Positions 16,989 through 42,036 of a DNA stretch of 64,000 bases are shown here, in pieces. The notes under the pieces were generated by a model. The model made no database searches, was not told the origin of the DNA, and saw nothing but the letters and a program-made list of their open reading frames with translations. Numbering within the stretch: position 1 is the first letter of the stretch; every line of letters begins with the position of its first letter. Origin of the DNA: a virus (Duplodnaviria > Caudoviricetes); the IMG/VR virus record IMGVR_UViG_3300034053_000029, positions 1-64,000 of that record; one strand, given 5' to 3'. A program made the position numbers and the translations under genes.

Positions 16989-17247
16989 ATAATTTATACC
17001 AATCGGAGTGGTAAATAACTCTCTTGCCCCAGGGAATACTAAAATTATCTTCTAATCCCTTGAACTTCATCAAAACGAATACCATCTGTTCTTCAGTGAT
17101 ATGAATTACATGATAGCACATTCCGGTCATATCTGTAAAGTGTTTTTTGATGGTATCTGACATAAGGTATAGTGAGTACCGGTCTTTATTTTTGTACCAA
17201 TAGTACTCAGGTAACTCACTATAATCATCCACCAAAATCAACTCCAA
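16978..17247 (-). CDS. Possible divergent LKW-family protein with C-terminal extension
   Basis: ITEEQMVFVLMKF motif. Confidence 0.5.
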   Translation of the reverse strand: MELILVDDYSELPEYYWYKNKDRYSLYLMSDTIKKHFTDMTGMCYHVIHITEEQMVFVLMKFKGLEDNFSIPWGKRVIYHSDWYKLYER

Positions 17248-17807
17248 CCTTTCATAATAGTGATGATTCGTCGCATATCATACTGACCAAGACCACGATC
17301 TTCATCCACCAAAATCAATTTGTCATCATACTTATCTTTGTCTGTAATAAGCGCACGATACATGCTATAACCGGAACTCTGATCATCGAGCGCAATCCAG
17401 TTTTTGACTTCTGGATGACGGGACAACCACGACTCGACTTGATGTAATCGACTACATGGATATCCAACACCATCCGAAATCTTTACCCAATCGTCATACT
17501 CAACTGCTTCACCACCTGTTTTCCAATCGGGATGTAGTAGAATAGGAACTTCATTTGTTTCAAACAAATCGATTGTGTTCTCCGGAGTCTTTAGGTGGTT
17601 TCTCCATGTCGAGGAAACGACCGTCTTGAAGTCATAGACTTTGTGCAAGTGTGTCCAGAAGTACTTGAATCGGTCGCACATTCTCCAGTAGTCGCATATC
17701 TCAATCAAGTCAGGATCGCCGGGATATACACGACGATTATCTGGATGGAATGAGATATCTACGTTAGTAAACACTGGTCCGTCGAAATCTAAGAAAACTA
17801 TATTCAT
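17238..17807 (-). CDS. HAD domain protein of Swiss-Army-knife RNA repair type
   Basis: IVFLDFDGP, VVSSTWR, WL..HPEV.NWIALDD. Confidence 0.8.
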   Translation of the reverse strand: MNIVFLDFDGPVFTNVDISFHPDNRRVYPGDPDLIEICDYWRMCDRFKYFWTHLHKVYDFKTVVSSTWRNHLKTPENTIDLFETNEVPILLHPDWKTGGEAVEYDDWVKISDGVGYPCSRLHQVESWLSRHPEVKNWIALDDQSSGYSMYRALITDKDKYDDKLILVDEDRGLGQYDMRRIITIMKGWS

Positions 17808-21221: not shown

Positions 21222-21429
21222 TCACTGCAAAAATGTACTCAGAAATTGTGAATGCTTTTTGCAAGTCTGCACTATTCCAGTATTCTTCTGCTGCCTTGGC
21301 ACAACGGTCTTCTATCAATACCTTAAAGTTCTCTAAGGCAGTTTCGTGACAAGTACCAACTTGTGTGTTAGACAAGTCTGAACCTGAGAATCCAGACTGC
21401 CGTGCTAATGTTTCTAATAAGGTGTTCAT
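21211..21429 (-). CDS. Divergent MNERI-family small protein
   Basis: MNTLLETLARQSG...LENFKVLIEDRC. Confidence 0.55.
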   Translation of the reverse strand: MNTLLETLARQSGFSGSDLSNTQVGTCHETALENFKVLIEDRCAKAAEEYWNSADLQKAFTISEYIFAVSEE

Positions 21430-21460
21430 TCTACTGCTCCAAACTCACATCATGTATCCA

Positions 21461-21510
21461 ATTATAATCGAATCCAAAACTTTGTCAATCTCTTTCGTAA
21501 CTCATTGATC
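21461..21510 (-). promoter_or_regulatory. Early promoter with near-IHF box
   Basis: TTGACA-16-TATAAT; GATCAATGAGTTA. Confidence 0.7.
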
Positions 21511-21792
21511 CATAGGGTATTTTCCAGAATGTGTCAGGACAAACAACATAGCATCTTGATCAAATTTGAATCGGTAGATCAGATGCAATATGGCACCACG
21601 ATGTATTGTTGTAGTCTTGTAACTCGGTATCTCTGGTTTGTGATACCGATCCCAAAATCTACCACGGATACTGATTCGATCTTCACACCATTGATCGAGT
21701 ATAGGAGTTACGGTTGGCATCCATCCACCTATTTGATTATTAGCGTCTATGTGCGTCCAGTTATCAAAATAATCGCTTATATTTTTAGTCAA
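21502..21792 (-). CDS. LKW-family small protein
   Basis: FKFDQDAMLFVLTHS. Confidence 0.65.
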   Translation of the reverse strand: MTKNISDYFDNWTHIDANNQIGGWMPTVTPILDQWCEDRISIRGRFWDRYHKPEIPSYKTTTIHRGAILHLIYRFKFDQDAMLFVLTHSGKYPMDQ

Positions 21793-22067
21793 AATTTTAA
21801 TGCAACCATCAAATACACTTCCTGAGAAACAAACATTCGCATTCTACCCAATCCCCATGCCCAATCTTCGTGTTCTGTGAAGGTCTCTTGTATGTAATCG
21901 AAGACACGATCTGATGCTTCCAGAACTACTAATTTCCTACCGAATAATTCAGTTTCATGAATTGATTGATATGGTTTCGGTGGGTCTGGATCAACACCAC
22001 GCAATAGTGCATCGACTTCCTCTTGTGATAGTGTCATTAAATCTTCCATCCAATCTTCTTCTTTCAT
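21789..22067 (-). CDS. LKW-family small protein
   Basis: VSQEVYLMVALKF. Confidence 0.65.
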   Translation of the reverse strand: MKEEDWMEDLMTLSQEEVDALLRGVDPDPPKPYQSIHETELFGRKLVVLEASDRVFDYIQETFTEHEDWAWGLGRMRMFVSQEVYLMVALKF

Positions 22068-22288
22068 TCAACTTGAACCGAGTTGCCAAACTTGAGTCGC
22101 ATTAGCATTGCAATATCATCCGGAACATCACTAAATTTACCTGATGGATGTCTTTCAGGATATTGTGGATCATAAACTGCAGTATAAAACATATGTTCAA
22201 ACCTGAACAATACATTATGAGAAGTCAAAAACTCTTTCATTTGGGCAATTTCTTCGTATGCTTTGGGATATATTTTGATATCTTTCAT
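22064..22288 (-). CDS. LKW-family small protein
   Basis: VPDDIAMLMRLKFG. Confidence 0.65.
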   Translation of the reverse strand: MKDIKIYPKAYEEIAQMKEFLTSHNVLFRFEHMFYTAVYDPQYPERHPSGKFSDVPDDIAMLMRLKFGNSVQVE

Positions 22289-22500
22289 TACATATACTTC
22301 ATCATAAGATACGCAGCAGATTCTGGATTTTCGACGTATGCAAACCGATTATCACCGAATAAAAATACACGATCTGGATTGTAAAATCTCCCTAGTAAAT
22401 CTTCTTGCAAGAAGTCAACGTGCGAAATCCTGCATTTACCATTGACATATGTAGGAACTTTTGTCCACTTCAATCCAAACTTTTTATTAACGTGTTTCAT
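22288..22500 (-). CDS. LKW-family small protein
   Basis: ENPESAAYLMMKYM. Confidence 0.65.
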   Translation of the reverse strand: MKHVNKKFGLKWTKVPTYVNGKCRISHVDFLQEDLLGRFYNPDRVFLFGDNRFAYVENPESAAYLMMKYM

Positions 22501-22501
22501 T

Positions 22502-22681
22502 TTAACTCCATTTCATAGAGAACATCACCGCATCTTGTTCACTAGCAAATATGTATTTACGCATAGCACCTGATTCATACAAGACAGTAAAGGATGTTAT
22601 GTCATAAGGAATTTCGTTTTCCTTCAACCATTGTAACTGTCCATCACGAAGTTTTACTGTTACGACATATTCCATCTTCAT
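22502..22681 (-). CDS. LKW-family small protein
   Basis: FASEQDAVMFSMKWS. Confidence 0.75.
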   Translation of the reverse strand: MKMEYVVTVKLRDGQLQWLKENEIPYDITSFTVLYESGAMRKYIFASEQDAVMFSMKWS

Positions 22682-22929
22682 CCCCACTTCAATGCAAACA
22701 AAACAGCATCTTCTTCACGCTTGAAGTAAAAAGTACAGTATTCATAAATCCAATTGTTGCCGAACTGTTCTTCACACCAATCTCGAACTTCGGTTGCAGA
22801 TGCTAACCGAAACTCACATTTAACAGGATTCATTCGTACTTTATCGAAACTACGAAAACCATGATCCGCATCTTCGCCTGACATAGCGAAATATTTGTCT
22901 TTCATCGAACTGTATTCAAATTTTTTCAT
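22678..22929 (-). CDS. LKW-family small protein
   Basis: WCEEQFG...FKREEDAVLFALKWG. Confidence 0.8.
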   Translation of the reverse strand: MKKFEYSSMKDKYFAMSGEDADHGFRSFDKVRMNPVKCEFRLASATEVRDWCEEQFGNNWIYEYCTFYFKREEDAVLFALKWG

Positions 22930-23165
22930 GACCACTTCAATAGGAACATCACAACTTGTTCTTCCGTCTTCACTTGTATCTCACCCCAATTTAGATTTTT
23001 CAAGTTTCTTGTGTCTGGTGTGGATGTTTCCTTGAACCAATTATATATGGCAGAAGTGTCTTCACTATTCAAAGCAGGAAATGCGATAGTGTACCATAAC
23101 TGCTCTTGCCATGTATCCGACCGCCAACAAATTTCCTCATACCAATGTATATTTTTAATCTTCAT
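22926..23165 (-). CDS. LKW-family small protein
   Basis: VKTEEQVVMFLLKWS. Confidence 0.75.
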   Translation of the reverse strand: MKIKNIHWYEEICWRSDTWQEQLWYTIAFPALNSEDTSAIYNWFKETSTPDTRNLKNLNWGEIQVKTEEQVVMFLLKWS

Positions 23166-23410
23166 GAGTATCTCATTATAAACATAACTTCGTCTTCTGG
23201 ATTGTCGAACACAACCTCATCAAGTACGGTTGGTTGATCCTCTGGTTCTAATACTTGATTGTCAAAATATCGATACACCACCTTACATTTGAATCTCTCT
23301 TCAAATTTCCACCTGATGCGTTCCTCTGACCAACATTCCTTTTTTGCTTTTGGTATCTCTTTCGCTAAGGCATTCCTAACGATATAATTATTGGATGATG
23401 TTATCTTCAT
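23162..23410 (-). CDS. LKW-family small protein
   Basis: FDNPEDEVMFIMRYS. Confidence 0.75.
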   Translation of the reverse strand: MKITSSNNYIVRNALAKEIPKAKKECWSEERIRWKFEERFKCKVVYRYFDNQVLEPEDQPTVLDEVVFDNPEDEVMFIMRYS

Positions 23411-23622
23411 GACCACTTCAATATGAATAATAGTTCATCTTCTTTTGTATGAAACTCAATCATTGTTGCTATGTTCAATTCATCGTGTAGTTTTATTTTA
23501 CAATTATACGCAGTTTCAAATCGTTCTACAATAACAGATTCTGGTGTGGTCTCACCAAGAGCAGTTGCTGCTTTCCTGATCATGTGCCTTGTGGATTCGT
23601 TGATAGGGAACATTTTTATCAT
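23407..23622 (-). CDS. LKW-family small protein
   Basis: FHTKEDELLFILKWS. Confidence 0.75.
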   Translation of the reverse strand: MIKMFPINESTRHMIRKAATALGETTPESVIVERFETAYNCKIKLHDELNIATMIEFHTKEDELLFILKWS

Positions 23623-23876
23623 CGGAATTTCAACTCAATGAGCATCCTCTGCTCTTCAGTAATCATTGCGTCACAAACATAATCGTCACCAAACTCGTTG
23701 CCTTCGTGTGGGTCAGTGCAATACAACATATCATCGGTTGGGTATGTTTCTCTTAGAAATTTTACAATGTCTTTTGGTTCAATAAAACCCCATCGTGCAC
23801 TATGATGACCCCAAGTATGGAGAGCATACCTGCCATGATATATTTTACTCTTATGAACTGACCAACCCATTCTCAA
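23619..23876 (-). CDS. LKW-family small protein
   Basis: ITEEQRMLIELKFR. Confidence 0.65.
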   Translation of the reverse strand: MRMGWSVHKSKIYHGRYALHTWGHHSARWGFIEPKDIVKFLRETYPTDDMLYCTDPHEGNEFGDDYVCDAMITEEQRMLIELKFR

Positions 23877-26333: not shown

Positions 26334-26546
26334 TCATCCCCACTTCAATTGAATATATGTTGCAGTATCTTCGTGAACCCAAAAATTGAATGTGCCGAAT
26401 CTTGGGTTAGATGGTTGGAATCGATCAATCTTGTTCTCGTTCATCCACCTATGAATTTCAACATACAAATCTGGAACAGATTTATCAACCACGACTTCGA
26501 TTGGATATTCAAAACACTTATTATGTCTAACGATTAACTTTGTCAT
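26334..26546 (-). CDS. LKW-family small protein
   Basis: VHEDTATYIQLKWG. Confidence 0.7.
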   Translation of the reverse strand: MTKLIVRHNKCFEYPIEVVVDKSVPDLYVEIHRWMNENKIDRFQPSNPRFGTFNFWVHEDTATYIQLKWG

Positions 26547-26758
26547 TTCCATCTCAACAAGAAAAACGCCACCCATTCTTCTCTAATATACAATCCACTC
26601 CCTGCTATTGTAACAGGAATATTGTTTTCATGCAACCAGTCTTTGATGTTCTCTCTAACAACAAGGTCAGTTGGTAGTTCGATTCGGTGCGTATATGGAT
26701 ACCGTTGAGATGATGTTGCGTATAAATGAGTTACACCAAGCGGAAGACGGTTTAACAT
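26543..26758 (-). CDS. LKW-family small protein
   Basis: IREEWVAFFLLRWK. Confidence 0.7.
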   Translation of the reverse strand: MLNRLPLGVTHLYATSSQRYPYTHRIELPTDLVVRENIKDWLHENNIPVTIAGSGLYIREEWVAFFLLRWK

Positions 26759-26976
26759 TATGCCCACCTCAACAAAAACATAAGCTCGCTCTCTTCGTCG
26801 GTGAATTCGATTCGCACTTTGTCTATGTCCGAAACACCAATGCCAATGGGTACATTGACGCCTTGATCCATCAACCATTTTGTGTAGCGTCGGTGATCAT
26901 AAGTGCTAAGTCTACCTGTTTCACTATAATAACCAGCCACAGCATTTTGCAAATATGGGAGTCTTGGTAAACTCAT
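26758..26976 (-). CDS. LKW-family small protein
   Basis: FTDEESELMFLLRWA. Confidence 0.75.
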   Translation of the reverse strand: MSLPRLPYLQNAVAGYYSETGRLSTYDHRRYTKWLMDQGVNVPIGIGVSDIDKVRIEFTDEESELMFLLRWA

Positions 26977-27227
26977 TATGCCCACCTCAACATAAACAAT
27001 GTTAAATCTTCTTCGGACTGAAAGTAAATATCGTTCCAACAAGGATACCACTTAGAGTTTTTGTGTTCGCCTGTTAGTGCAGGTTCGCCGTATGTTTCAG
27101 TGCACCAGGCGAATAATTCTGGCGCCTGCTCATCTAATCTAAATAACCCAAGAGTTTTCAGTCTGACACGGTGGGACCAAACAGTGTTGGTTTGATCAGT
27201 CTCATCAAAATATTTTACTTCGACCAT
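26976..27227 (-). CDS. LKW-family small protein
   Basis: WCTETYG...FQSEEDLTLFMLRWA. Confidence 0.8.
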   Translation of the reverse strand: MVEVKYFDETDQTNTVWSHRVRLKTLGLFRLDEQAPELFAWCTETYGEPALTGEHKNSKWYPCWNDIYFQSEEDLTLFMLRWA

Positions 27228-27415
27228 TATACCCACCTCAACGCAAACAAAACAGCGTCAGACTCTTTATCAAACTCGATCATACGATTTGCTTCGCCAG
27301 TTTTCCAACTGGTCCAATCGTGACCACCATAATGATTGCCTTCGCAGTTTTCATTACACCAATGAAACAGTGTATGATAATCTTTGTCATCGGAATATCG
27401 AACTTTGAAGAACAT
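27227..27415 (-). CDS. LKW-family small protein
   Basis: FDKESDAVLFALRWV. Confidence 0.8.
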   Translation of the reverse strand: MFFKVRYSDDKDYHTLFHWCNENCEGNHYGGHDWTSWKTGEANRMIEFDKESDAVLFALRWV

Positions 27416-27424
27416 TGTATATCC

Positions 27425-27727
27425 TCATTTCCATTTTAGCATCAACAAACTCGCCATTTCTTCTGGCACCAAAAACACAGACTCAAACCACAAATACCAC
27501 TCATACGTTTCTTTTGGGAATGACTCGTTCATCCATTTTAATTCTGTACCAAAAACATCAACTGGGTAATGAGTTGGATAATTTTTATGACATTCACTAT
27601 GCCCATTGATCATTCTAAAATGCCCTTTTCCTTTGTCACCATATCCTATCAACCAATTGTAGTGCTTCTCTAATTCTTCTTGCGATTCTTCAAGGTTAGA
27701 AGCAGACCTAAAATTGATAACTGTCAT
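27425..27727 (-). CDS. LKW-family small protein
   Basis: VPEEMASLLMLKWK. Confidence 0.7.
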   Translation of the reverse strand: MTVINFRSASNLEESQEELEKHYNWLIGYGDKGKGHFRMINGHSECHKNYPTHYPVDVFGTELKWMNESFPKETYEWYLWFESVFLVPEEMASLLMLKWK

Positions 27728-27966
27728 TATTTCCATCTCAACGCAAACATCATCGCATCTTCTTCTCTGGCGAATGAATACAACGGATGACCGTCTCTAC
27801 CACGACCAAAATTATTTACCATGTATCTAGCATGTCCGTCTTGAATACAATTACCAATATTGGCCTTCAACCATTTTTGGACTTCACCATATTCTCCATC
27901 TTTTCCATATGATTCAATGGACAACGACACATTATATCGCTTGCTTCTCGGTTTTCTCTGTTTCAT
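27727..27966 (-). CDS. LKW-family small protein
   Basis: FAREEDAMMFALRWK. Confidence 0.8.
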   Translation of the reverse strand: MKQRKPRSKRYNVSLSIESYGKDGEYGEVQKWLKANIGNCIQDGHARYMVNNFGRGRDGHPLYSFAREEDAMMFALRWK

Positions 27967-28214
27967 ACCATCAACCTCGCTAAAATCATGTCCTCTTCTC
28001 GTTTGAAATATATCCTGACTGTTGATTCGTATGGTTTGAAGTTCACCACTACCCACATTTCATACGGTGATGACTCATAACATATTGGTGGTTCTTTGTG
28101 TCCTTTCGGTGACTTGAACCGTTCTTTGAGTTTCTTTATTTTTATAAATGGATTTAGTGACGAATCGAACAACCTCGGTTCGTTATGCCCTAATTCAAAC
28201 CAGTATGGAGTCAT
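27963..28214 (-). CDS. LKW-family small protein
   Basis: FKREEDMILARLMV. Confidence 0.65.
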   Translation of the reverse strand: MTPYWFELGHNEPRLFDSSLNPFIKIKKLKERFKSPKGHKEPPICYESSPYEMWVVVNFKPYESTVRIYFKREEDMILARLMV

Positions 28215-28812
28215 TAAACTGATCCTTTAACCATTTTAGTTGTACCCTATCTTCCCATTCACAATGATGGATCAATGACGCATAATCTGTTCCACGCAGT
28301 TTTTCCCACATGAGCATTTCTTCTACTTGAGGAAAGTCCTCAGTGAAGAATCGGAAGTCCCAAGAATACGAATGCCATATCGAATCGAATCGTTTTCGAT
28401 TTTTACCTTTGTTCAATAGTTTGTTCGTAAGTTTCTCCCAAACCGGATGGTTGTAACAACCAAACCCACCAGTTCCTGTATGGAAGCATGTCTTGTTGAA
28501 TACGTCAGATGAGTAAAACGACACTGGTGAATTTTCATAACGAATCCACACTCGACCTTCAAACCCAGGAAATCCATTTGGGTAATCCTTGTCTCGGTAT
28601 CCCCAATTTGTCTTTTTCCCTTTTGGAGCATCGTGGGTGTTACTCACGCACTTACTATACTTCACTTGCCATGAGAATCCTACAACTCGGTTGTCGGTGT
28701 CTATACCACGATGCTTGCACTCTCGCACATACATAGGGTCTTTGAAATTGGCATTCACTCTGGCAATGCAGAGGTCGGCAAGCTCACTCATTGTTTCATT
28801 GAACATTGTCAC
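28195..28812 (-). CDS. Conserved hypothetical phage protein
   Basis: VSNTHDAP..K.TNWG...GFPGFEGRVWIRY. Confidence 0.7.
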   Translation of the reverse strand: MTMFNETMSELADLCIARVNANFKDPMYVRECKHRGIDTDNRVVGFSWQVKYSKCVSNTHDAPKGKKTNWGYRDKDYPNGFPGFEGRVWIRYENSPVSFYSSDVFNKTCFHTGTGGFGCYNHPVWEKLTNKLLNKGKNRKRFDSIWHSYSWDFRFFTEDFPQVEEMLMWEKLRGTDYASLIHHCEWEDRVQLKWLKDQFNDSILV

Positions 28813-29033
28813 ACCTTGTATTTTTTAAACAATCGAGTGACGTAATCAACTTTACCAGTACTGATAGGTGGATAACCACCAGATTCATTCTTGGTCGATT
28901 TTCCATTCTGCATGGTCTTTAGGATTACACCCCACGCACTCTTTGTTCCGCTACCATAGACACGCAATTCAAACGTGTCACCATTATTAGTTTTAACGGA
29001 ATCAACGACAACAAACTTACCAAAACTAGACAT
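28809..29033 (-). CDS. Hypothetical early protein
   Basis: AAGGAG RBS after promoter. Confidence 0.65.
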   Translation of the reverse strand: MSSFGKFVVVDSVKTNNGDTFELRVYGSGTKSAWGVILKTMQNGKSTKNESGGYPPISTGKVDYVTRLFKKYKV

Positions 29034-29058
29034 AACAAACTCCTTTAACGATGGACGA

Positions 29059-29110
29059 ATTATACTCTAGTAGTTATGGGAGTGTCAACCAATTTTGTAA
29101 GTTGTTGATT
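29059..29110 (-). promoter_or_regulatory. Early promoter with IHF box
   Basis: TTGACA-18-TATAAT; AATCAACAACTTA. Confidence 0.75.
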
Positions 29111-29500
29111 CTATGAAAATTTTAGCGTGATCATGAAGGCATCTTCTTCGGAATCTGTACCAACAAAGACACAATCGCAGTCTCCAAGACCGTTTATATG
29201 AAATTCACCATTTAACCAGACACCACGCTCAAAAAGATATATTCCTTTACCTAACCCCATATAGGGCAACGCCTCGTCGCTTAGTTCCCATGCCCTCGTA
29301 TTTGCAGTATTGAACCATTTTTTATAATCTACGCAGATGACATATTTGAACTTTAAGCAATCTGTTATTTTGATTCCACTTGGTTTGTACTTTGTGATTC
29401 GCCATCTTTCATAACGAATTTGTTCAATAGAATTTCCTGTTGCCTTTGAAAGCAACCAATCCTTGAAGTGTCGACTTACACTAGCCCACTTTTCTTTCAT
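29111..29500 (-). CDS. LKW-family protein
   Basis: DSEEDAFMITLKFS. Confidence 0.7.
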   Translation of the reverse strand: MKEKWASVSRHFKDWLLSKATGNSIEQIRYERWRITKYKPSGIKITDCLKFKYVICVDYKKWFNTANTRAWELSDEALPYMGLGKGIYLFERGVWLNGEFHINGLGDCDCVFVGTDSEEDAFMITLKFS

Positions 29501-29808
29501 GTCCATTTTAGTAGCAACATCAGTAAGTTTTCTTCTTGGAATCCGAGTATTTCTGCTCTATGATTTACCGTTCTCACATAGCAACCTTGCTCGAATAACC
29601 AAGAGTCGAATTGTAGTCGTTTGTGTCCTTTAGATGGAACGTCGACCAAGTGAGTTTCCCACACTCGTCGCCCATTGTCAGTTTGAATATGATCATTACA
29701 CCATCTATTCCAAATGCGATCTGCAACAGTTAGTTCTCTTCTCACTTTCATCTTCTCCAATGCTGATCTTGATCTAAACGATCCTATGTTTATCTTTTTC
29801 TTGGTCAT
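29497..29808 (-). CDS. LKW-family small protein
   Basis: FQEENLLMLLLKWT. Confidence 0.7.
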   Translation of the reverse strand: MTKKKINIGSFRSRSALEKMKVRRELTVADRIWNRWCNDHIQTDNGRRVWETHLVDVPSKGHKRLQFDSWLFEQGCYVRTVNHRAEILGFQEENLLMLLLKWT

Positions 29809-30086
29809 GCGAATTTCAATACAAACATCATAATAGTTTCCTCCGGAACATCATCACTAAATTCTATGTGTGCTGAATAATCATCATATGCAGTTTTGTT
29901 GATTGCCCACTTATCATTTATTGATCTTCGATACTCACCATCTAACGTAGGTGCTGCTTCCTCTATATTATCTTCCAACCATGCAATAATCCTGTAGTTT
30001 CGCCACCGATCCTTTTTTGCCGTGAATCGTAGTGGTTCAACATCTTCAAGGGCGACATTACCCCAACACCATTCTACCGTTCTCAT
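29805..30086 (-). CDS. LKW-family small protein
   Basis: VPEETIMMFVLKFA. Confidence 0.7.
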   Translation of the reverse strand: MRTVEWCWGNVALEDVEPLRFTAKKDRWRNYRIIAWLEDNIEEAAPTLDGEYRRSINDKWAINKTAYDDYSAHIEFSDDVPEETIMMFVLKFA

Positions 30087-30268
30087 GACCACTTCAAAGC
30101 GAACAGAATCGCTTCTTCCTCTTTGTGAAACTGGTATAGCACTCTAGGATTGTTTGTGTCCATAACTTGAGTGTATGGTATATAACCGAAAGATTCTAAT
30201 GCCCAACCCATTCGAGACATTCTTTCACTCATGTTTTCTTTGAAAGGAACATAAACGTCATAACTCAT
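30083..30268 (-). CDS. LKW-family small protein
   Basis: FHKEEEAILFALKWS. Confidence 0.8.
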   Translation of the reverse strand: MSYDVYVPFKENMSERMSRMGWALESFGYIPYTQVMDTNNPRVLYQFHKEEEAILFALKWS

Positions 30269-30477
30269 AACCATTTCAATGAGAACATCATTGCCTTCTG
30301 ATCGTCATATATGAATATAGTCGAGAGAGTGAATCCCGAAGAATATTTACCTTCCCATACAGGAATCGTACCGTTCATTTGATCACCGAGATGTTCCACA
30401 CACCAAATAAGAACATCCTTATTTTCAACGTGCTGCTTTTGACATATTTCCCACACTGAAAATTGGTTAATTCCCAT
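30265..30477 (-). CDS. LKW-family small protein
   Basis: WCVEHLG...YDDQKAMMFSLKWL. Confidence 0.75.
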   Translation of the reverse strand: MGINQFSVWEICQKQHVENKDVLIWCVEHLGDQMNGTIPVWEGKYSSGFTLSTIFIYDDQKAMMFSLKWL

Positions 30478-30682
30478 TTACCCACCCCAATACAAACATC
30501 ATTTCCTCTTGAGTATCATCCTCATCGAAAATGACTTCTAATACTTCGTCGTTATTGAGTGAGAAATCAGATACGTCTGTTAGGTAACAAGCGACTTTGT
30601 TTTTGGTACACCAATCGATTGCACCCTTCAAGTCACTATTTCCGTCGCCTAAGTAATATTTCTTTTTGCTCATCCTCATCAT
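30467..30682 (-). CDS. LKW-family small protein
   Basis: DTQEEMMFVLGWV. Confidence 0.65.
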   Translation of the reverse strand: MMRMSKKKYYLGDGNSDLKGAIDWCTKNKVACYLTDVSDFSLNNDEVLEVIFDEDDTQEEMMFVLGWVNGN

Positions 30683-30906
30683 CCCCACTTCAAAACGAAT
30701 AGCATGAACTGCTGTTCATCGTTGAAATCAATATTTACTTCAGTTGCCCACTTATTCCAAATTATCGTTGCGTCATATTCTTTGAGTAGTTTTCTGACCG
30801 TCTGCCAGAATTCACTCTCGACACTTCGACTGTACTTGTATACTATATTCTTCCACCATTGCGGCGAAGTGCTGAGTGTAGTAATTGTAAAGTGTATCAC
30901 ATCCAT
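30679..30906 (-). CDS. LKW-family small protein
   Basis: FNDEQQFMLFVLKWG. Confidence 0.75.
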   Translation of the reverse strand: MDVIHFTITTLSTSPQWWKNIVYKYSRSVESEFWQTVRKLLKEYDATIIWNKWATEVNIDFNDEQQFMLFVLKWG

Positions 30907-31112
30907 CTCATTATAAACAATACCTTCGTTTCTTCGTCAGGGAACGTGATAGTCGCTCCTTCGACGATAACATTGTGGCTATCCAACCATTCGGAGAGTC
31001 CACCTTTCTCGTAACAATCTAACCACTTTCTGACTCCACCCTGTGTTACAAACCCAATTAATGTTGAGTGCCAAGGAACAACACCGTTTTCTGTAAAAGG
31101 AAATGTTATCAT
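30897..31112 (-). CDS. LKW-family small protein
   Basis: FPDEETKVLFIMRWM. Confidence 0.75.
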   Translation of the reverse strand: MITFPFTENGVVPWHSTLIGFVTQGGVRKWLDCYEKGGLSEWLDSHNVIVEGATITFPDEETKVLFIMRWM

Positions 31113-31279
31113 GTGAATTTCATCAAAATGAATACGCCAATTTCTTCACTGACCATCAACTTGTATCCTTCTCTCCAATACCAAGTTCCCATAGACGGTT
31201 CTGGATAGTTATCATTCAGAAATTCGATGATATTCTCAAACACATAATTGGGGAGTTCTTCGTAGTCGATCTCGTACAT
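31109..31279 (-). CDS. LKW-family small protein (56 aa, not in ORF track)
   Basis: MYEIDYEELP...VSEEIGVFILMKFT. Confidence 0.7.
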   Translation of the reverse strand: MYEIDYEELPNYVFENIIEFLNDNYPEPSMGTWYWREGYKLMVSEEIGVFILMKFT

Positions 31280-31280
31280 T

Positions 31281-31562
31281 TTATGCCCACTTCAATAAGA
31301 ACATCAGCATGTTTTCTTCAGAAGAAAAAACTATATATTTGTAGTTATTCATACCTAAAGTATCTACAACTGCTCTAAGAATCTTGCTATTATCTTCATC
31401 AATGATTTTCCCACCAAACCGATCCAACTCATCATCGAACGCTCTTCTCATTGATGCGAAAACAAATAAGTTCAAATTTTTGTTTATGAAGTTTGCTCTG
31501 ATAGCATCGTATGTTGATGAACACCAATGGATCGTGTTAGTCGATGAATTCATTTCCCTCAC
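31281..31562 (-). CDS. LKW-family small protein
   Basis: FSSEENMLMFLLKWA. Confidence 0.75.
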   Translation of the reverse strand: MREMNSSTNTIHWCSSTYDAIRANFINKNLNLFVFASMRRAFDDELDRFGGKIIDEDNSKILRAVVDTLGMNNYKYIVFSSEENMLMFLLKWA

Positions 31563-31746
31563 CTCCCCACTTCATCAGAAACATCACATACTCTTCTTTG
31601 GTCATTTTGAATGAATACTTCTCTGCTTCTTTTCCTACTTCACACTCAATACACCACGTTCTCATCTCATCCAGAAACACGCAGACGATGTATATTGTCT
31701 GGTTCGTATCGGGGTCGATGAATCTCATTTTTGTGTATAACATCAT
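31537..31746 (-). CDS. LKW-family small protein
   Basis: MTKEEYVMFLMKWGG. Confidence 0.7.
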   Translation of the reverse strand: MMLYTKMRFIDPDTNQTIYIVCVFLDEMRTWCIECEVGKEAEKYSFKMTKEEYVMFLMKWGGEGNEFID

Positions 31747-32057
31747 GCCCACTTCATTGTAAATAGAATAGCATCTTCCTTTGTGTTGAAACCCCACCAC
31801 TCTTCTTTTTTCGCAGAGTTGCTCATATAGCACAGAGGAAGTTTACTCAAATTGTTTTGACACCATTGCCAAAATGTGGGCGATGTGCTATTCAATCTAA
31901 CACCACGAATGAACACTTTGGTTAGGTAGAATGTTGGAACCCAACCGTCCCGTTTCTCAGGAATCCAAAGTGGGCAGTCATCTGCCGTTATATCCATTTT
32001 CCATCCACCATCATTGATGACGGTGTTAGCGTACTCGATAAATTCTTGTCGGTTCAT
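31743..32057 (-). CDS. LKW-family small protein
   Basis: FNTKEDAILFTMKWA. Confidence 0.8.
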   Translation of the reverse strand: MNRQEFIEYANTVINDGGWKMDITADDCPLWIPEKRDGWVPTFYLTKVFIRGVRLNSTSPTFWQWCQNNLSKLPLCYMSNSAKKEEWWGFNTKEDAILFTMKWA

Positions 32058-32302
32058 GAGTGTTTTAGTAAGTAAAATGCTAGTTTATCTGGATCGTCTG
32101 AGGCAATGAATATATCCCAACAACCATCTTCCTCTTCTATTATACAATAGTTACTGCCAAGAGGCAACGGAAAAAGTTCCCATAGTAGTTGGTACATAAA
32201 ATTATTTGTTTCATCATCATAAACGTATGAACCAATTGCCTCTCTCATATACCACACAATTTTTCTTGGGCATTTAAGTTCTGTAATCATACCTTTTTCC
32301 AA
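32054..32302 (-). CDS. LKW-family small protein
   Basis: DDPDKLAFYLLKHS. Confidence 0.6.
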   Translation of the reverse strand: MEKGMITELKCPRKIVWYMREAIGSYVYDDETNNFMYQLLWELFPLPLGSNYCIIEEEDGCWDIFIASDDPDKLAFYLLKHS

Positions 32303-32573
32303 ATTTTAATAAGAACAACATAGCGTGTTCATCTGGCAATTCAAACGAAATGATTGATCTGATTTCCCATGATGTATGATCTTGAAAATAGTCGAATGTT
32401 GGTTGGCACTCTTGCGGCATTTCTTGCTCGTTCATCCAATCGAACATTGGTTTAAGAATGTCCTTATGCCATTTCATTATTGTTTTGTGTTTACCATATT
32501 TGTCAGCAGAATCCCACTCTGGTTGCGACAAGTAAAAATCGTCCATAGGTGGGAGTGCGTACCTGACTTTCAC
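32274..32573 (-). CDS. LKW-family small protein
   Basis: LPDEHAMLFLLKFG. Confidence 0.7.
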   Translation of the reverse strand: MKVRYALPPMDDFYLSQPEWDSADKYGKHKTIMKWHKDILKPMFDWMNEQEMPQECQPTFDYFQDHTSWEIRSIISFELPDEHAMLFLLKFGKRYDYRT

Positions 32574-36148: not shown

Positions 36149-36303
36149 TGTCCGTAACCGTTAAGAAAGTTAAGCATATCGTGATCTAGCGTATCAAAAT
36201 CTGTAACCCCACACATTTCTAGAATGTGCATACTCCATGCATTATCTAGCAAGCTATATCTGGATGTATATTTGTTAAACATTTTGAACACTCATGTATC
36301 AGT

Positions 36304-36344
36304 CGATGAGTGAATTATAAACGAACCAATCTAGAAGTCAACAA
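36304..36344 (-). promoter_or_regulatory. Early promoter, 41 nt identical to 13878-13918
   Basis: TTGACT-16-TATAAT exact duplicate. Confidence 0.8.
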
Positions 36345-36346
36345 CT

Positions 36347-36703
36347 TTAGTAACTCTTTGATTTCTTTACGATATTTCGTTGCTTTTCCCATACCCACCC
36401 AGTTGCTCGTTGGGTGTTATTGTATGAGGTTTGATCTTCGCTCCAAGTTTTCTTGCAATCTAGACACTTGAATTCGTACCAATACGAATCTGTGTGGGGA
36501 TCATAGTTGCCAGTGTTAGCACAAGCGGTTTGCTCTACGTTCATATGGGTACAATACCTCTCCTGGGTCGGTGTTGCTATCGGCGTTGGGTGATCCTTTT
36601 CGTACCTTATTAAGAGAGAATACAACCAGTGAGTATCAACTCCAGAGGTTGGGTAGTTCATATTGAACCAATCTTCAAAATTATCGTAGTCCATTTTATT
36701 CAT
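36347..36703 (-). CDS. Hypothetical protein
   Basis: C.H...CLDC.K.W. Confidence 0.6.
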   Translation of the reverse strand: MNKMDYDNFEDWFNMNYPTSGVDTHWLYSLLIRYEKDHPTPIATPTQERYCTHMNVEQTACANTGNYDPHTDSYWYEFKCLDCKKTWSEDQTSYNNTQRATGWVWEKQRNIVKKSKSY

Positions 36704-36933
36704 CCAAATTTTAACTTAAACATAATAGCGTCTTGTTCAAACTCAAACCAAAACGATCTTCCGTATTTGTGATATCTGCCGGTTATGATGTTTTCTAATA
36801 GCTCGGCCTCGCTACGACTGAACATCGGAAATGACTTGAAAGGATGACCGAATCTTACCATCGTCCAATCTCGGTCGTGGTTGATGCCAAGAAGGACAAT
36901 GTCCTCTAATGAAACGTGTTTAGTCATTTCCAC
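36700..36933 (-). CDS. LKW-family small protein (dispersed)
   Basis: FEFEQDAIMFKLKFG. Confidence 0.7.
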   Translation of the reverse strand: MEMTKHVSLEDIVLLGINHDRDWTMVRFGHPFKSFPMFSRSEAELLENIITGRYHKYGRSFWFEFEQDAIMFKLKFG

Positions 36934-37090
36934 TTCAACAAGTCAAATAAATTGTCAAAATACACTTTCACAATGTAATGTTTTTCTTGGTCGTCGTATC
37001 GTTCGTATACTGTTTTAGTTTCCTCGGCCCACCACATAAACTCTAATGCTTTGTATTTTGAGGTCAGGTCAACATCGGCAACTAATTTGG

Positions 37091-37282
37091 TCATTTCTTC
37101 TCAACAGGAACACCAACAACTTTACAATGTTGATCCCTTGGCAACGATTTCTCGCATTCAGCAATAGCAGTTTTATATCTACTCACACTTGAATCGGCAA
37201 ATCCAAGTAGTAACATTAGCAAAATGACACCAGTAAACATACCAATGATGAATGCATAGCCATTGCTATTCAACATACCCAA
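37091..37282 (-). CDS. Small membrane protein
   Basis: One TM; AIAECEKSLPRDQHC. Confidence 0.65.
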   Translation of the reverse strand: MGMLNSNGYAFIIGMFTGVILLMLLLGFADSSVSRYKTAIAECEKSLPRDQHCKVVGVPVEKK

Positions 37283-38254: not shown

Positions 38255-38745
38255 TTTACTCCTACTTTGTAATTTTGACCATTGAATTTAGCGGATAATC
38301 GTTCATATTCTGCACGTTCTCGTTGCAAGTTATCTTCAGCGACCTTACGTTCTTTCTCTACCTTTTCTTGCTCAAGTTTAGATGCCTTTTCATCGGCAAT
38401 CTTCTTAAGTCTTGCAATTTCATTATCACGGAGCACTTTGATTTCTTCAAACAATGCTTCATGGCTTTCAATAATATCATCAAATCCATCATCAGAACCA
38501 TAAGTATAGTTGTATGCATACTCCACGGGAGCACCGTTTATGAGAATGTCAAAGTCATAATCTGGTTCACGTCGATCATGCTCGTGTATATTTTTCCATT
38601 GAATTTGACCCCATCGTTTGGCAATGCTTTCTTTATTAAGATATGTCTCAAGAATAAAGTCTGCGCCCCATGAATCCATAACACCTCCTCGACATGTATC
38701 GACACCATCACGTTTGTATGCAATCAATGTAAATATTGTGGTCAT
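38251..38745 (-). CDS. Hypothetical protein with coiled-coil tail
   Basis: ERAEYERLSAKF. Confidence 0.65.
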   Translation of the reverse strand: MTTIFTLIAYKRDGVDTCRGGVMDSWGADFILETYLNKESIAKRWGQIQWKNIHEHDRREPDYDFDILINGAPVEYAYNYTYGSDDGFDDIIESHEALFEEIKVLRDNEIARLKKIADEKASKLEQEKVEKERKVAEDNLQRERAEYERLSAKFNGQNYKVGVK

Positions 38746-39029
38746 AATTTCACTCCGAAGTGTTCTTTTATCTTACATTCCATTACGCTATAAGGCATCA
38801 TTTTTAGTTGACAATATTCTGCCTGCTCAATTGCTATTGGTATACATTCCTTCACCGCACACTCAAATCCTTCTTGGAATGTTTGCCAATGATCCTCGAC
38901 GGTTGGATTACTATACTCTCCGTTTGGTAAGCGTGGGTAAATCTCTTTGCTGCCATCAAACGAAAGCACTGACAACCCAAAACTAGGTGCCGTGACTTTC
39001 TCAAACAGTTCTCTGATTTTATCGTTCAT
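38742..39029 (-). CDS. MNERI-family small protein with insert
   Basis: MNDKIRELF...AVKEC...IKEHFGVK. Confidence 0.7.
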   Translation of the reverse strand: MNDKIRELFEKVTAPSFGLSVLSFDGSKEIYPRLPNGEYSNPTVEDHWQTFQEGFECAVKECIPIAIEQAEYCQLKMMPYSVMECKIKEHFGVKL

Positions 39030-39394
39030 TTCATTTCCTTCCCAAGTTTGGCAGCAAGTTCAACGATAACACGCCGAGCCGCAGCAAGAGGATCAGTCAC
39101 GCCATCTTGTCTTGCGGAACGATAGTTTGGATCATAACCAACATTGTTCTCAGCACACACCATTCTTGCCTTCACATTATCAAACGCACAATCAACATAT
39201 AGATTCAAGTTCAACTTCACCATTAGTCGGAAAGCATCGCCATCGTCGGTAAGTGGGTCCCATATTCCATTGATAAGGGCATCGAATTCCTCATCAACGC
39301 TGAGTTCGCTATCAGGGTCTGGTAAGTATTCCTTGTAAGTAATGCCCGCTGCTTTTGCTGCCAACTCAAGAAGTTCCCTATCGTTTTCGTTCAT
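39026..39394 (-). CDS. Conserved phage protein (WxPLxDDGDAxRL family)
   Basis: DRELLELAAKAAG...WDPLTDDGDAFRL...AARRVIVELAA. Confidence 0.7.
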   Translation of the reverse strand: MNENDRELLELAAKAAGITYKEYLPDPDSELSVDEEFDALINGIWDPLTDDGDAFRLMVKLNLNLYVDCAFDNVKARMVCAENNVGYDPNYRSARQDGVTDPLAAARRVIVELAAKLGKEMK

Positions 39395-39672
39395 AGTGTT
39401 GACTCCAATTTTGGCACCGCCAAACATCGCATTAGAGCCGCTTCTGCCTCTTGTATTTCTTCGTGGGTGCTTGCACGATCCCATTTAACTATTGCACTTC
39501 GACACTGTTGAGCATACGCATTACATCTGATGAGAGTATTACGAAGATTGTCTGTAAATAGTGCAATGTCTTCTTCCCACTTTCCAGAGTCTGACTTACA
39601 ATCCATTCCGATTGCCTTACAGTGTGAATAAAGCCAGATCAACTCTGGCGGCGGAAGTTTCTTATCGTTCAT
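39391..39672 (-). CDS. Hypothetical protein
   Basis: ELIWLYSHCKAIGMDCKSDSGKWE. Confidence 0.6.
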   Translation of the reverse strand: MNDKKLPPPELIWLYSHCKAIGMDCKSDSGKWEEDIALFTDNLRNTLIRCNAYAQQCRSAIVKWDRASTHEEIQEAEAALMRCLAVPKLESTL

Positions 39673-39673
39673 A

Positions 39674-39919
39674 CTACACTCTCCTGTTCCACTTGTCAAT
39701 CGCTTCTTGCTTAGAATTACCAACCATTTCTACACCACACCCACCTGTAGTTTCGGGGCAATTCATACTGTAGCACCACTGTTCTTTTGGCACATCACGG
39801 AAACTGACAAAATGCCTAAGACCACTTCGCTCACTATATGCCCAACCAACACCACTTGGATATAGTGTATCGGGTTCTTCCATATCAACTTCTTTACCGC
39901 AGAACGGACAAGGTTTCAT
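39674..39919 (-). CDS. Lar-family restriction-alleviation-like Zn-ribbon protein
   Basis: MKPCPFCG...C....GCG...EAIDKWNRR. Confidence 0.75.
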   Translation of the reverse strand: MKPCPFCGKEVDMEEPDTLYPSGVGWAYSERSGLRHFVSFRDVPKEQWCYSMNCPETTGGCGVEMVGNSKQEAIDKWNRRV

Positions 39920-39928
39920 TTATTATCC

Positions 39929-40168
39929 TCAACGATATTTCAATAAAAGCAAAGTGTATTGCTCGTCTGTGAATTCCATTGTTGTCAATGGGCTGTATCT
40001 ATTATACGCAACCGAACCAGCAAATACTGGTACTACATTCCCGCCAAATTCTTCAACTAACGCATCAACGACAGAATTTTTCTTTTCTTGTTTCACTTGT
40101 TCTATCCAATAATCTGCTGCATTCTCTCTAACACGCTGTGGCAAATCATTCCAACTAACACGGATCAT
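39929..40168 (-). CDS. LKW-family small protein (dispersed)
   Basis: FTDEQYTLLLLKYR. Confidence 0.65.
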   Translation of the reverse strand: MIRVSWNDLPQRVRENAADYWIEQVKQEKKNSVVDALVEEFGGNVVPVFAGSVAYNRYSPLTTMEFTDEQYTLLLLKYR

Positions 40169-40365
40169 TATCCAAACCTCAATACAAGCATAGTGGCAGT
40201 TTCTTCGGTTGTGTAGATGACATTATTTCCGCCATCGAGACGACGGATATATCCGATATCTTCCAACCATTCCCAAATCTCGTCCAACTCACGAAGAAAA
40301 GCATTATGAACTTCTACTCTAACGACACTTCCGGTTGGAGGTACTTTGGAAATGTTGAAGTTCAT
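40168..40365 (-). CDS. LKW-family small protein (dispersed)
   Basis: TTEETATMLVLRFG. Confidence 0.65.
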   Translation of the reverse strand: MNFNISKVPPTGSVVRVEVHNAFLRELDEIWEWLEDIGYIRRLDGGNNVIYTTEETATMLVLRFG

Positions 40366-40544
40366 TTTATCAACCCAAAATGATATTTGATTGAACTAAT
40401 AGCATCGTCAATCGCATCTTCCTTTGCTGCCATTCGCTCGTAGTAATCTCGTGACTCGTAGCCGCCAACATCAGCATACGACGCTTTCATATCCTCTAAA
40501 ATCTCCAACACCGTTTCCAAATCTGATTTAACTTTGGTCATCAT
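40362..40544 (-). CDS. Hypothetical protein
   Basis: Ends IKYHFGLIK like MNERI family. Confidence 0.55.
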   Translation of the reverse strand: MMTKVKSDLETVLEILEDMKASYADVGGYESRDYYERMAAKEDAIDDAISSIKYHFGLIK

Positions 40545-40774
40545 TCTACTCCGAAATAGTCCATAATATAGAATGGAAGTTTCTCTGGTTCTTTCTCGAA
40601 AACACCAATCAACCTTGCCGAATTTACAAAACTAGCACACTCTTTGACGATCAACTCTGCGAAATTTTCGGCAAATGTTTTTAGTTCGGTATTATATGAT
40701 ATCTGTTTATTGATATCTTCTTCAGCCATTATCTTTGCCTGAACAGCAAGTGCATTGATTCGCTCGTTCATCAT
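40541..40774 (-). CDS. MNERI-family small protein
   Basis: MNERINALA...FAELIVKEC...YFGVE. Confidence 0.75.
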   Translation of the reverse strand: MMNERINALAVQAKIMAEEDINKQISYNTELKTFAENFAELIVKECASFVNSARLIGVFEKEPEKLPFYIMDYFGVE

Positions 40775-40956
40775 TCTACTATTCCAAAATGTTCATTGAT
40801 GAAGTGTCCTGCCAATGGCTGAAACTTTTTATATGCAACATCAGTACATTCTTTGATAATCAACTCTGCGAATTTCTCCATTCCTGGCTTGCACATATCA
40901 TACACATCAGGATGATATCCAGCCTGTGCCGCAAGTTCTTTGATTCGTTCATTCAT
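40771..40956 (-). CDS. MNERI-family small protein
   Basis: MNERIKELAAQAG...FAELIIKEC...HFGIVE. Confidence 0.75.
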   Translation of the reverse strand: MNERIKELAAQAGYHPDVYDMCKPGMEKFAELIIKECTDVAYKKFQPLAGHFINEHFGIVE

Positions 40957-41121
40957 CTTCGCTTACTCCCGCAATCATTTCATCCATTTCTTCAGCCAAT
41001 TCCGCTAACTCTAATCTCGCAGCAATCCGAGAAGGAATTGAGAAAAAAACATGAGAATCCTCACTGTTTAGTGCTTCCCGCAACCGCAAGTATTCTTCTA
41101 ACACTTCGGAAAATTTACGCA

Positions 41122-41608: not shown

Positions 41609-41619
41609 TCGATGAACAA

Positions 41620-41669
41620 ATTATAGCATACCCAAACCAAAAATCAACAACTTTGGTAAGTCGTTGATT
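41620..41669 (-). promoter_or_regulatory. Early promoter with IHF box and extended -10
   Basis: TTGATT-16-TATAAT (TG at -15/-14); AATCAACGACTTA. Confidence 0.75.
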
Positions 41670-41857
41670 CATAACCACTTTAAAGTGAAAAGTGTCGCAT
41701 CCTCTTCATTTTGAAACACTATCTCATCGTAGGAATCAATGTACCAGTTAGTATGATGCGGTTGCCCAAAATGCTCGATACACCACGCCCAAAATCTAGG
41801 CAAGTTTCCCACATAATCAAACCGAGTAGCAGCAGGAACTTTGACTTTTACAACCAT
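41669..41857 (-). CDS. LKW-family small protein (dispersed)
   Basis: WCIEHFG...FQNEEDATLFTLKWL. Confidence 0.8.
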   Translation of the reverse strand: MVVKVKVPAATRFDYVGNLPRFWAWCIEHFGQPHHTNWYIDSYDEIVFQNEEDATLFTLKWL

Positions 41858-42036
41858 TTCATTGCAAACAGAATAGCGTCTGCTTCCTTGTCGAAAAAAT
41901 AATCGATCATAGTTTTATCGTAAGTGTAATATCCGTCTTGATGTAAGTCATTAGTGATATAGCTCTTACAGTTCTTTCTCGCCCAAGTCAATGCCTCCCA
42001 AGTCGGATCGTAAGGTAGAGTAACATGAATACTCAC
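41848..42036 (-). CDS. LKW-family small protein (dispersed)
   Basis: FDKEADAILFAMKWL. Confidence 0.8.
   Translation of the reverse strand: MSIHVTLPYDPTWEALTWARKNCKSYITNDLHQDGYYTYDKTMIDYFFDKEADAILFAMKWL

Follow-up and report, generated by a model that had tools for sequence, protein, structure and literature searches.

A conserved C-terminal protein motif that may double as the ribosome-binding site of the next gene in early arrays of an uncultured T4-like phage

Many small, consecutive genes in the early region of a large phage end in almost the same codons, those for leucine, a basic residue and a tryptophan, and the locus raises the question whether these codons serve the protein, the translation of the following gene, or both. 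The phage is an uncultured, T4-like virus with a genome of 210 kb, of which the window analysed here is a stretch of 64,000 nt, and the interval in question (26543-31746) lies in the early hyperplastic region. The first-pass annotation suggested that the tail codons double as the Shine-Dalgarno (SD) sequence of the next gene at every such junction, and that the genes are exchangeable cassettes.

The window contains a chain of 80 genes on the minus strand, in which most junctions have overlaps of the -4 or -1 type. The small family genes sit in this chain as early arrays driven by sigma-70 promoters and transcribed, as it appears, in long polycistronic runs (Table 1). The early promoter listed in Table 1 lies inside a 77-nt gap ending the upstream family run, and a second match to the sigma-70 consensus (12/12) is found at 21488-21461. 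A conserved sigma-70 promoter cassette of approximately 60 nt recurs in the gaps of the window, that 77-nt gap included; no stem-loop terminator was found beside the cassettes in these gaps. Two non-family genes also fall within the interval, and the first of them (74 aa) has an SD of its own, AAAGGAG.

Approximately 36 paralogues of a single unannotated small domain of 60-130 residues are chained in the window. The domain has the order strand-helix-strand-strand-helix, carries a W-C-x-E-N-x-G helix and closes with the helix E-E-D-A-x-x-F-x-L-[K/R]-W, after which the protein has one more residue. Positions W19, F48, F57, L59 and W61 are nearly invariant (alignments A1 and A2), and an AlphaFold2 model (mean pLDDT 90.7) gives the same E-H-E-E-H order. 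A profile search returned 671 representative clusters at E <= 0.001, almost all of them ending at the motif, and in 333 of 397 homologues the tryptophan is the last residue but one. The family is thus a real domain, even at 15-30% identity between its proteins. No family was matched when members and alignment A2 were searched against Pfam, PHROGs and PDB sequences, and neither megablast of the interval nor tblastn of a 62-aa member found a match among deposited phages. At the level of structure, Foldseek gave nothing below E = 0.4 in the PDB, BFVD yielded uncharacterised phage proteins only, the ESM Atlas viral hypothetical clusters only, and the best hit of a wide fold search with VIA-align (Z 6.3) was below the noise level of the tool. 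The KH, RRM and ACT-like matches are generic two-layer sandwiches at noise, and no function was drawn from them. As to relatives of individual genes, only one was found for gene 30083 (37% identical), the 205-aa neighbour gene had no match among viral contigs and a best protein match of 41% identity, and a metagenome scan recovered nothing closer than a 32% relative. Homologues of approximately 65-90% identity (P0030, P0040, P0050) are present on contigs of 1.2-4 kb.

Table 1. Features of the window discussed in the text. Energies refer to pairing with an anti-SD tail that may not be that of the host.
Feature	Coordinates	Strand	Basis or value
Largest run, 15 chained family genes, tails F-x-L-[K/R/G]-[W/F/H]	29111..32573	-	ORF chain, tails, alignment A1
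Second run, 8 clear family genes at 26334-27966	26334..28172	-	ORF chain, tails
Third run, about 10 family genes, K-W, K-F and R-Y tails	21502..23876	-	ORF chain, tails
Two more members, LKWK and LKFG	36700..37094	-	tails
Two more members, LRFG (AGG, strong SD) and LKYR	39929..40365	-	tails, SD energy
Two more members, MKWL and LKWL	41669..42036	-	ORF chain, tails
Early promoter, perfect sigma-70 consensus	29059..29088	-	12/12 hexamer matches
Two non-family genes, 74 aa and 205 aa	28195..29033	-	inside the interval 26543-31746
Junction TTG AGG TGG GCA TAA TG	26758..26774	-	-8.3 kcal/mol, recoding P = 0.024
Junction TTG AGG TGG GCA TAA TG, strong SD	26976..26992	-	-8.3 kcal/mol, recoding P = 0.024
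Junction TTG AGG TGG GTA TAA TG, strong SD	27227..27243	-	-8.8 kcal/mol, recoding P = 0.009
Representative Lys junction TTG AAG TGG TCA TGA, ATGA overlap	30083..30097	-	-1.8 (short anti-SD) / -3.7 (long anti-SD) kcal/mol
Variant junction, extended K-W tail	31537..31571	-	-12.7 kcal/mol

The tails are not uniform among the runs. All six R-W tails of the window belong to the second run, which also includes a divergent gene (27963-28172) with a degenerate tail; in the largest run gene 30467 has glycine in place of the basic residue and gene 32054 ends in LKHS. The LKWL member of the last pair in Table 1 uses TTA AAG codons and is followed by a 60-nt promoter gap.

The eight junctions quoted in the first-pass annotation were all recovered on the minus strand where it had placed them, each with the described overlap between the stop codon and the next ATG, either ATGA (4 nt) or TAATG (1 nt). 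The word TTGARGTGGNNNTRA occurs 11 times (22678, 22926, 23407, 26334, 26758, 26976, 27227, 30083, 30679, 31281 and 36924), always on the minus strand, against 0.09 matches expected from dinucleotide-preserving shuffles. Identical junction words of 15-19 nt are common to otherwise dissimilar genes. The proposed spacing, with GAGGTG about 6 nt before the ATG, holds in the three TAATG junctions only. In the ATGA junctions 2 nt separate the end of AAGTGG from the ATG, AAGTGGGG abuts the ATG, and the GAAG core alone stands at an SD-like spacing of 5 nt. The extended tail of the variant junction deserves separate mention: it is lengthened by G-G-E-G-N-E-F-I-D, whereby GGAGGTGA is encoded before the next ATG (31553) and the two genes overlap by 17 nt.

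Anti-SD pairing was compared with that of synonymous recodings of the tail, all energies being computed with an anti-SD tail that may differ from the host's. Among the Arg junctions, strong pairing (-6.3 to -8.8 kcal/mol) was obtained only at 26758, 26976 and 27227, where GAGGTGG precedes the overlapping ATG, and at the LRFG junction at 40168; recoding P values of the AGG junctions were 0.009-0.03. The Lys form represented by 30083 recurs at 22926 and 23407, and a GGA form is found at 22678, 26334 and 30679. Overall the AAG/AAA-TGG junctions, the dominant class, pair only weakly, at about -1 to -4 kcal/mol. The pairing of AAG-TGG is near the recoding expectation, that of AAA-TGG and AAA-TTY is practically zero, and most Lys-type and F-type junctions fall between +1.8 and -2.5 kcal/mol with the short anti-SD. 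After family genes the mean SD in the window is -3.2, compared with a stronger -4.7 at the other junctions of the same array. Four of the eight Arg tails in the window have TTG-AGG, and most tails have lysine. The claim that the tail codons form the SD of the next gene is thus supported for TTG-AGG-TGG but not for the Lys forms, and the effect in the window is weaker than first proposed.

Codon choice points in the same direction. The leucine codon of the window tails is TTG in 19 of 29 cases against a background of 0.285 (p = 4e-5; this and the following p-values are optimistic, because paralogues and related contigs do not count as independent observations), and more so at coupled ends (18/23) than at uncoupled ones (1/5; p = 0.026). 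Lysine before tryptophan is AAG in 11 of 16 tails compared with 0.38-0.42 (p = 0.01-0.03), and in 2 of 12 before F, Y or H. A family-wide set of 430 non-redundant members from 119 viral loci, all from other phages, displays the bias far more clearly: arginine is AGG in 197 of 280 cases (70%; 8.7% elsewhere in the same genes) and leucine is TTG in 212 of 374 (57%; background 0.201). Only positions -2, -1 and +1 carry this bias, which is also tied to the presence of a following gene, AGG being used at 173 of 222 coupled ends but at 1 of 7 where no gene follows (p = 9e-4), and the amino acid itself shifts, with Arg:Lys of 222:70 at coupled and 7:10 at uncoupled ends (p = 0.003), although only 17 uncoupled genes, 7 of them with Arg, enter the comparison. 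For lysine, AAG makes up 43% versus 33% (p = 0.03), with no difference between coupled and uncoupled ends. The predicted enrichment of SD-like codons was therefore borne out for AGG and TTG and is marginal for AAG. A stop codon in the +1 frame (TGA or TAA across the Leu and Lys/Arg codons) was rejected as the source of the leucine bias, G-ending codons being far more frequent than A-ending ones with AGG.

Since the Arg and Leu codon bias depends on a coupled gene, selection for an SD appears to be superimposed on a motif that is held at the protein level. The annotation had itself allowed for protein-level selection from F-ending variants lacking the SD; these variants (AAA TTY) are indeed present, with no anti-SD complementarity, and both they and the Lys tails persist without an SD, as do, in other phages, Lys-only arrays with ATGA overlaps that keep the motif (L116, 15:0; L033, 8:0). 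One might then regard the tail as kept for folding or function alone and its SD likeness as incidental or ancestral, given that the motif residues are hydrophobic core positions and that most window junctions are devoid of meaningful anti-SD pairing. Such a by-product is nevertheless very unlikely and, family-wide, already disfavoured: an eightfold excess of AGG and a threefold excess of TTG fall precisely on the codons that form the SD, the remaining synonymous sites of the tails stay near background in proteins of this divergence, and the bias is missing at uncoupled ends. An even more improbable possibility is that the [K/R]-W codons provide not the SD of the next gene but its start, TGG after AAR or AGR always yielding an ATG or GTG in frame, 10 nt back from the end of the stop codon. 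Every K/R-W junction has such an RTG in the frame of the downstream gene, because of which the start codons are ambiguous, and the public call for gene 30083 (P0174, 63 aa) begins there. However, the RTG follows automatically from the codons, the T-rich region upstream of it has no SD, the GTG of AGG junctions lies within the SD itself, and most junctions (147/173 of the AGG junctions) independently retain an ATG at -4 or -1; that the -10 RTG is a real start is unlikely in the extreme.

At the other end stands the complete proposal of the first-pass annotation, in which all L-R/K-W tails, those with lysine too, function as SDs and recombination takes place at the 15-19-nt junction, making the genes integrase-free cassettes swapped by short homology. 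In its favour, GAAGTGG differs from an equally spaced GAGGTGA by a single mismatch, and because the window has a modest AAG excess beside the strong TTG excess, some SD-like selection on Lys-type junctions is conceivable. Dissimilar genes with identical junction words also fit, as do related contigs elsewhere, where 32% of homology breakpoints, versus 3.3% of random positions, are no more than 5 nt away from a family stop and where whole genes are inserted or deleted exactly at junctions (L037/L110 and L034/L112). Yet breakpoints at gene ends would be expected in any case, because selection for intact genes yields the same pattern, and the longer, repeated promoter cassettes offer alternative substrates for recombination. 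The weak pairing of AAG, its marginal family-wide bias, equal at coupled and uncoupled ends, and the retention of the motif in Lys-only arrays also speak against it. The remaining tail codons of the window are not homogenised beyond TTG; gene conversion of whole tails was likewise rejected, the other tail positions having the expected codon identity. In its full form we consider this proposal doubtful.

We therefore favour, with reasonable confidence, a reading in which about 36 paralogues form early arrays coupled by overlaps, selection for a TTG-AGG SD is laid over the protein motif, and the Lys junctions mostly operate through the overlap only. Coupling and SD use are both deduced from the sequence. 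Consensus sigma-70 promoters would drive long polycistronic runs of small early genes, and a ribosome ending one gene would most likely begin the next by termination-reinitiation, as the overlaps suggest. With a single codon always separating the helix from the stop, the codons for leucine and the basic residue come to lie at the SD position. Leucine and tryptophan, hydrophobic and nearly invariant, are presumably held by protein-level selection, the basic residue being free to be either Lys or Arg; with Arg, and only if a coupled gene follows, nucleotide-level selection would favour TTG-AGG and hence GAGGTGG. Three to four junctions of the window seem to be in this state. Most are of the Lys type (GAAGTGG or weaker), one mismatch from an SD, and probably depend on the overlap alone. 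As judged from codons and predicted pairing, the window is a weaker instance of a dual coding that is strong in related uncultured phages. A bolder extension, which we put forward only tentatively, is that the last helix acts as a portable adaptor for translational coupling, the ribosome-binding site required by the following gene dictating both the TTG-AGG codons and Arg over Lys; the 15-19-nt junction would then allow whole early genes to be gained, lost or swapped and still be expressed, the window representing a relaxed, mostly Lys state.

The locus offers a natural case in which one short sequence may be under two selections, for a protein motif and for a neighbour's ribosome-binding site, with internal controls in its Arg versus Lys tails and its coupled versus terminal genes. 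It also draws attention to early proteins of big freshwater phages that form a large family without annotation, and the expansion to approximately 36 copies, together with their early position, hints that these proteins act in host takeover or counter-defence, which is only a guess. For annotation, it is a warning that, where phage genes are tightly packed, residues conserved at the C-terminus may partly reflect translation signals.

Large tandem expansions of one small gene family have been described in the jumbo phages G and 121Q, with arrays of more than 30 similar genes attributed to tandem duplication (Hua et al., 2017, PMC5646251); the arrays there comprise very similar genes, whereas the members here are highly divergent. 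The modular shuffling of T4-type hyperplastic regions by PeSL regulatory cassettes (Arbiol et al., 2010, PMC2839356; Comeau et al., 2014, PMC4122927) is another parallel: both cases concern T4-like phages with arrays of small non-essential early genes, short repeats at gene boundaries, including here the repeated promoter cassette in the gaps, and a gain and loss of genes that would need no dedicated integrase. Unlike a PeSL, which combines a promoter with a terminator stem-loop, the junction proposed here is a coding and translation-signal element, and no stem-loop partner was seen in the window. That an SD may reside within the upstream gene at ATGA overlaps is an established principle. Intragenic SDs at ATGA and TGATG overlaps contribute to reinitiation to a variable extent, from essential to not at all (Huber et al., 2019, PMC6728339), which agrees with the mixture of strong and absent SDs in the window; co-directional genes and overlaps of 4 or 1 nt are common to both, and at the few strongly pairing junctions of the window so is an SD embedded in the final codons of the preceding gene. 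In contrast to those systems, the SD codons here belong to a protein motif conserved in hundreds of paralogues and homologues, and therefore the same putatively dual-coded element recurs at every junction, where the need for an SD appears to bias even the amino acid, Arg over Lys.

The window corresponds to the initial 64 kb of one 210,171-bp contig and has a G+C content of approximately 39%. No near-identical relative was found among deposited phages, and the MoxR/DUF2201 gene pair of this phage displays only 39% identity to its counterparts in PA5oct-like jumbo phages. Approximately 80 tightly packed small genes occupy the minus strand between about 43.5 and 20.9 kb. This array has few intergenic gaps, which harbor perfect sigma-70 consensus promoters and have in common a conserved promoter cassette about 60 nt long (Table). 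The cassette consists of an A-rich upstream segment, TTGAC(A/T), TATAAT and a CATCGA-like word downstream, and in sequence it resembles a T4-type early promoter. Such gene packing, together with promoters in the gaps, is how the early, hyperplastic regions of T4-type phages are arranged.

Approximately 36 genes of the window end in F-x-L-[K/R]-[W/F/Y], with E-E-D-A before the tail. These genes are true homologues over the whole length rather than unrelated bodies with a common tail: in their alignment a central W-[CL]-x-E-N helix is conserved as well. The profile built from 34 window members matched 671 representative clusters at E <= 0.001, nearly all of them 55-110 residues long and ending at the motif, and W19, F48, F57, L59 and W61 are nearly invariant in a 99-sequence alignment. 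The AlphaFold2 model of the domain is confident (pLDDT 90.7), with the order strand-helix-strand-strand-helix, and the tail motif is predicted to form the last helix. No Pfam, PHROG or PDB-sequence match and no significant fold match was obtained for the family, and an Atlas search returned viral hypothetical proteins only. Some database homologues (among P0027, P0053, P0061, P0028 and P0045) contain more than one copy of the domain: there are two-domain fusions of 105-161 aa, and the profile matches 8 times in a long protein of 1518 aa and 5 times in another of 1239 aa; P0045 repeats with a period of about 246 residues. Such proteins may have arisen by read-through of a junction, or they may be genuine polyproteins. 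A possible outlying member in the window (16978-17277, minus strand) has an internal motif (E-E-Q-M-V-F-V-L-M-K-F) followed by 27 more residues, and its profile match is weak (E = 0.16).

Features of the small-gene array, with promoter matches and anti-Shine-Dalgarno (anti-SD) pairing energies
Feature	Position	Strand	Observation
Sigma-70 consensus promoter	29088-29059	minus	12/12 matches
Sigma-70 consensus promoter	21488-21461	minus	12/12 matches
Sigma-70 consensus promoter	36341-36314	minus	11/12 matches
Gaps with ~60-nt promoter cassette	41600-41680, 36285-36355, 29026-29118, 21422-21510	minus	
Family genes	21.5-23.9, 26.3-28.2, 29.1-32.6, 36.7-37.1, 39.9-40.4, 41.7-42.0 kb	minus	tail motif
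TTG-AGG-TGG junctions	26758, 26976, 27227		short anti-SD -8.3 to -8.8 kcal/mol; strong
LRFG junction	40168		short anti-SD -6.3 kcal/mol; strong
TTG-AAG-TGG with ATGA overlap			short anti-SD -1.8 kcal/mol; longer anti-SD -3.7
AAA-TGG with ATGA overlap			short anti-SD -0.9 kcal/mol; no SD
K-[F/Y/H] tails			short anti-SD +1.8 to -2.5 kcal/mol; no SD

The family stop codon overlaps the next ATG as ATGA or TAATG. All junctions quoted in the first-pass annotation are present in the window, and TTGARGTGGNNNTRA occurs 11 times, always on the minus strand, vs 0.09 in shuffles. It had been proposed that the L-R/K-W codons double as the SD of the next gene, with GAGGTG lying about 6 nt before the ATG. 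This spacing is found only at the three TAATG junctions, but not at the ATGA junctions, where AAGTGG ends 2 nt before the ATG. Duplex energies were computed for the anti-SD tail against the stretch from -20 to -3 relative to each start (Table). In the window the dual use appears genuine at three or four Arg (AGG) junctions, but would be at best marginal at the Lys junctions, which form the majority. The F-ending tails indeed lack an SD, as had been suggested (K-[F/Y/H] tails in the Table). The mean energy after family genes was -3.2; elsewhere in the array, overlapping junctions averaged -4.7 and typically have a GGAG or GAGG. When all synonymous recodings of the upstream codons were enumerated and weighted by the phage's own codon usage, the AGG junctions alone stood out individually (P = 0.009-0.03), and the AAG junctions were near expectation (P = 0.13-0.45). 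Both family and non-family junctions displayed an overall shift towards SD-like codons (Wilcoxon p = 0.001-0.008), which is the ordinary consequence of an SD packed into the upstream gene. Two family genes on the minus strand have tails extended past Trp, KWGGEGNEFID (31537-31571) and GWVNGN (30467-30490), inside which the next gene starts; a strong SD (GGAGGTGA, -12.7 kcal/mol) is part of the extension's own coding sequence. A similar W-G-G-x ending is seen in many homologues from the databases.

In the window, Lys before Trp is AAG in 11/16 cases vs a background of 0.38-0.42 (p = 0.01-0.03), and before Phe, Tyr or His in 2/12 (Fisher p = 0.009). The motif Arg is always AGR (AGG 4, AGA 4). 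Leu is TTG in 19/29 cases vs 0.285 (p = 4e-5), namely in 18/23 where a gene directly follows vs 1/5 where the gap is >= 9 nt (p = 0.026). A nucleotide-level signal is therefore present, strong only for TTG and a few AGG tails.

For a family-wide test, 119 viral loci were fetched by a pattern leaving the Arg, Lys and Leu codon choice unconstrained, and family genes located by profile gave, after removal of duplicates, 430 members, 397 of them with Trp (penultimate in 333/397). The motif Arg was AGG in 197/280 vs 8.7% in the gene bodies of these members, Leu was TTG in 212/374 vs 20%, and Lys was AAG in 50/117 vs 33% (p = 0.03). Position by position, codon bias was confined to Leu(-2), Arg(-1) and the codon before the stop, where a final A completes ATGA; tail codons for the conserved residues Glu, Asp, Ala and Phe were near background. 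AGG accounted for 173/222 Arg codons in coupled genes (next start within -4 to +6) vs 1/7 in uncoupled ones (no start within 20 nt; p = 9e-4), and Arg:Lys changed from 222:70 to 7:10 (p = 0.003). The codon-choice test thus favors the Arg form of the proposal but lends the Lys form no support of similar strength. These counts are good evidence of SD selection on the Arg form, including a preference for Arg over Lys. The suggestion of additional protein-level selection also held: since some phages have Lys-only arrays chained by ATGA without any SD (Lys:Arg 15:0 in locus L116 and 8:0 in L033), the motif is maintained without any SD role.

The junctions had also been viewed as boundaries of integrase-free gene cassettes. 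Among pairs of loci 75-99% identical, all from viruses other than that of the window, 32% of the homology breakpoints were within 5 nt of a family stop codon vs 3.3% at random positions, and 49% vs 9% within 15 nt. Whole-gene differences in the locus pairs L037/L110 and L034/L112 have end points coinciding with junctions. The pattern in these loci fits gene-sized modular change; breakpoints near stops would also be expected if purifying selection had removed broken genes. Extra codon identity among the window tails was not found, except for TTG, and they share junction words of at most 19 nt. The promoter cassettes of the gaps, which are longer repeats, could be an alternative recombination substrate in the window; gene shuffling by cassettes of this kind has been demonstrated in T4-type phages (PMC2839356; PMC4122927). 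For the window's genome, the junction cassette mechanism seems plausible.

Other small paralogous families are found in the array. Five genes on the minus strand (38742-41367; ending at 41122, 40771, 40541, 40362 and 38742) have the tail H-F-G-[V/I/L]-x, which in three members reads TTY GGA GTA GAA TGA. Here the codons for Gly-Val form a GGAG that lies four nt from the overlapping ATG (-5.9 to -6.1 kcal/mol), and this looks like another tail doubling as an SD, although in few genes. Three adjacent paralogues of 77-85 aa (42033-42774, minus strand), including two with a P-Y-K ending, are linked through ATGA overlaps and lack any SD-like sequence (-0.9 to -1.8 kcal/mol).

Neither the family nor its dual coding was found described in the libraries and literature searched. 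Large tandem expansions of one gene have been reported in jumbo phages (PMC5646251). An SD inside the upstream gene at ATGA/TGATG overlaps is established, its contribution to termination-reinitiation being variable (PMC6728339). Unlike in the known intragenic SDs, the SD-bearing codons described here also encode a protein motif that is conserved and recurs throughout a very large family.
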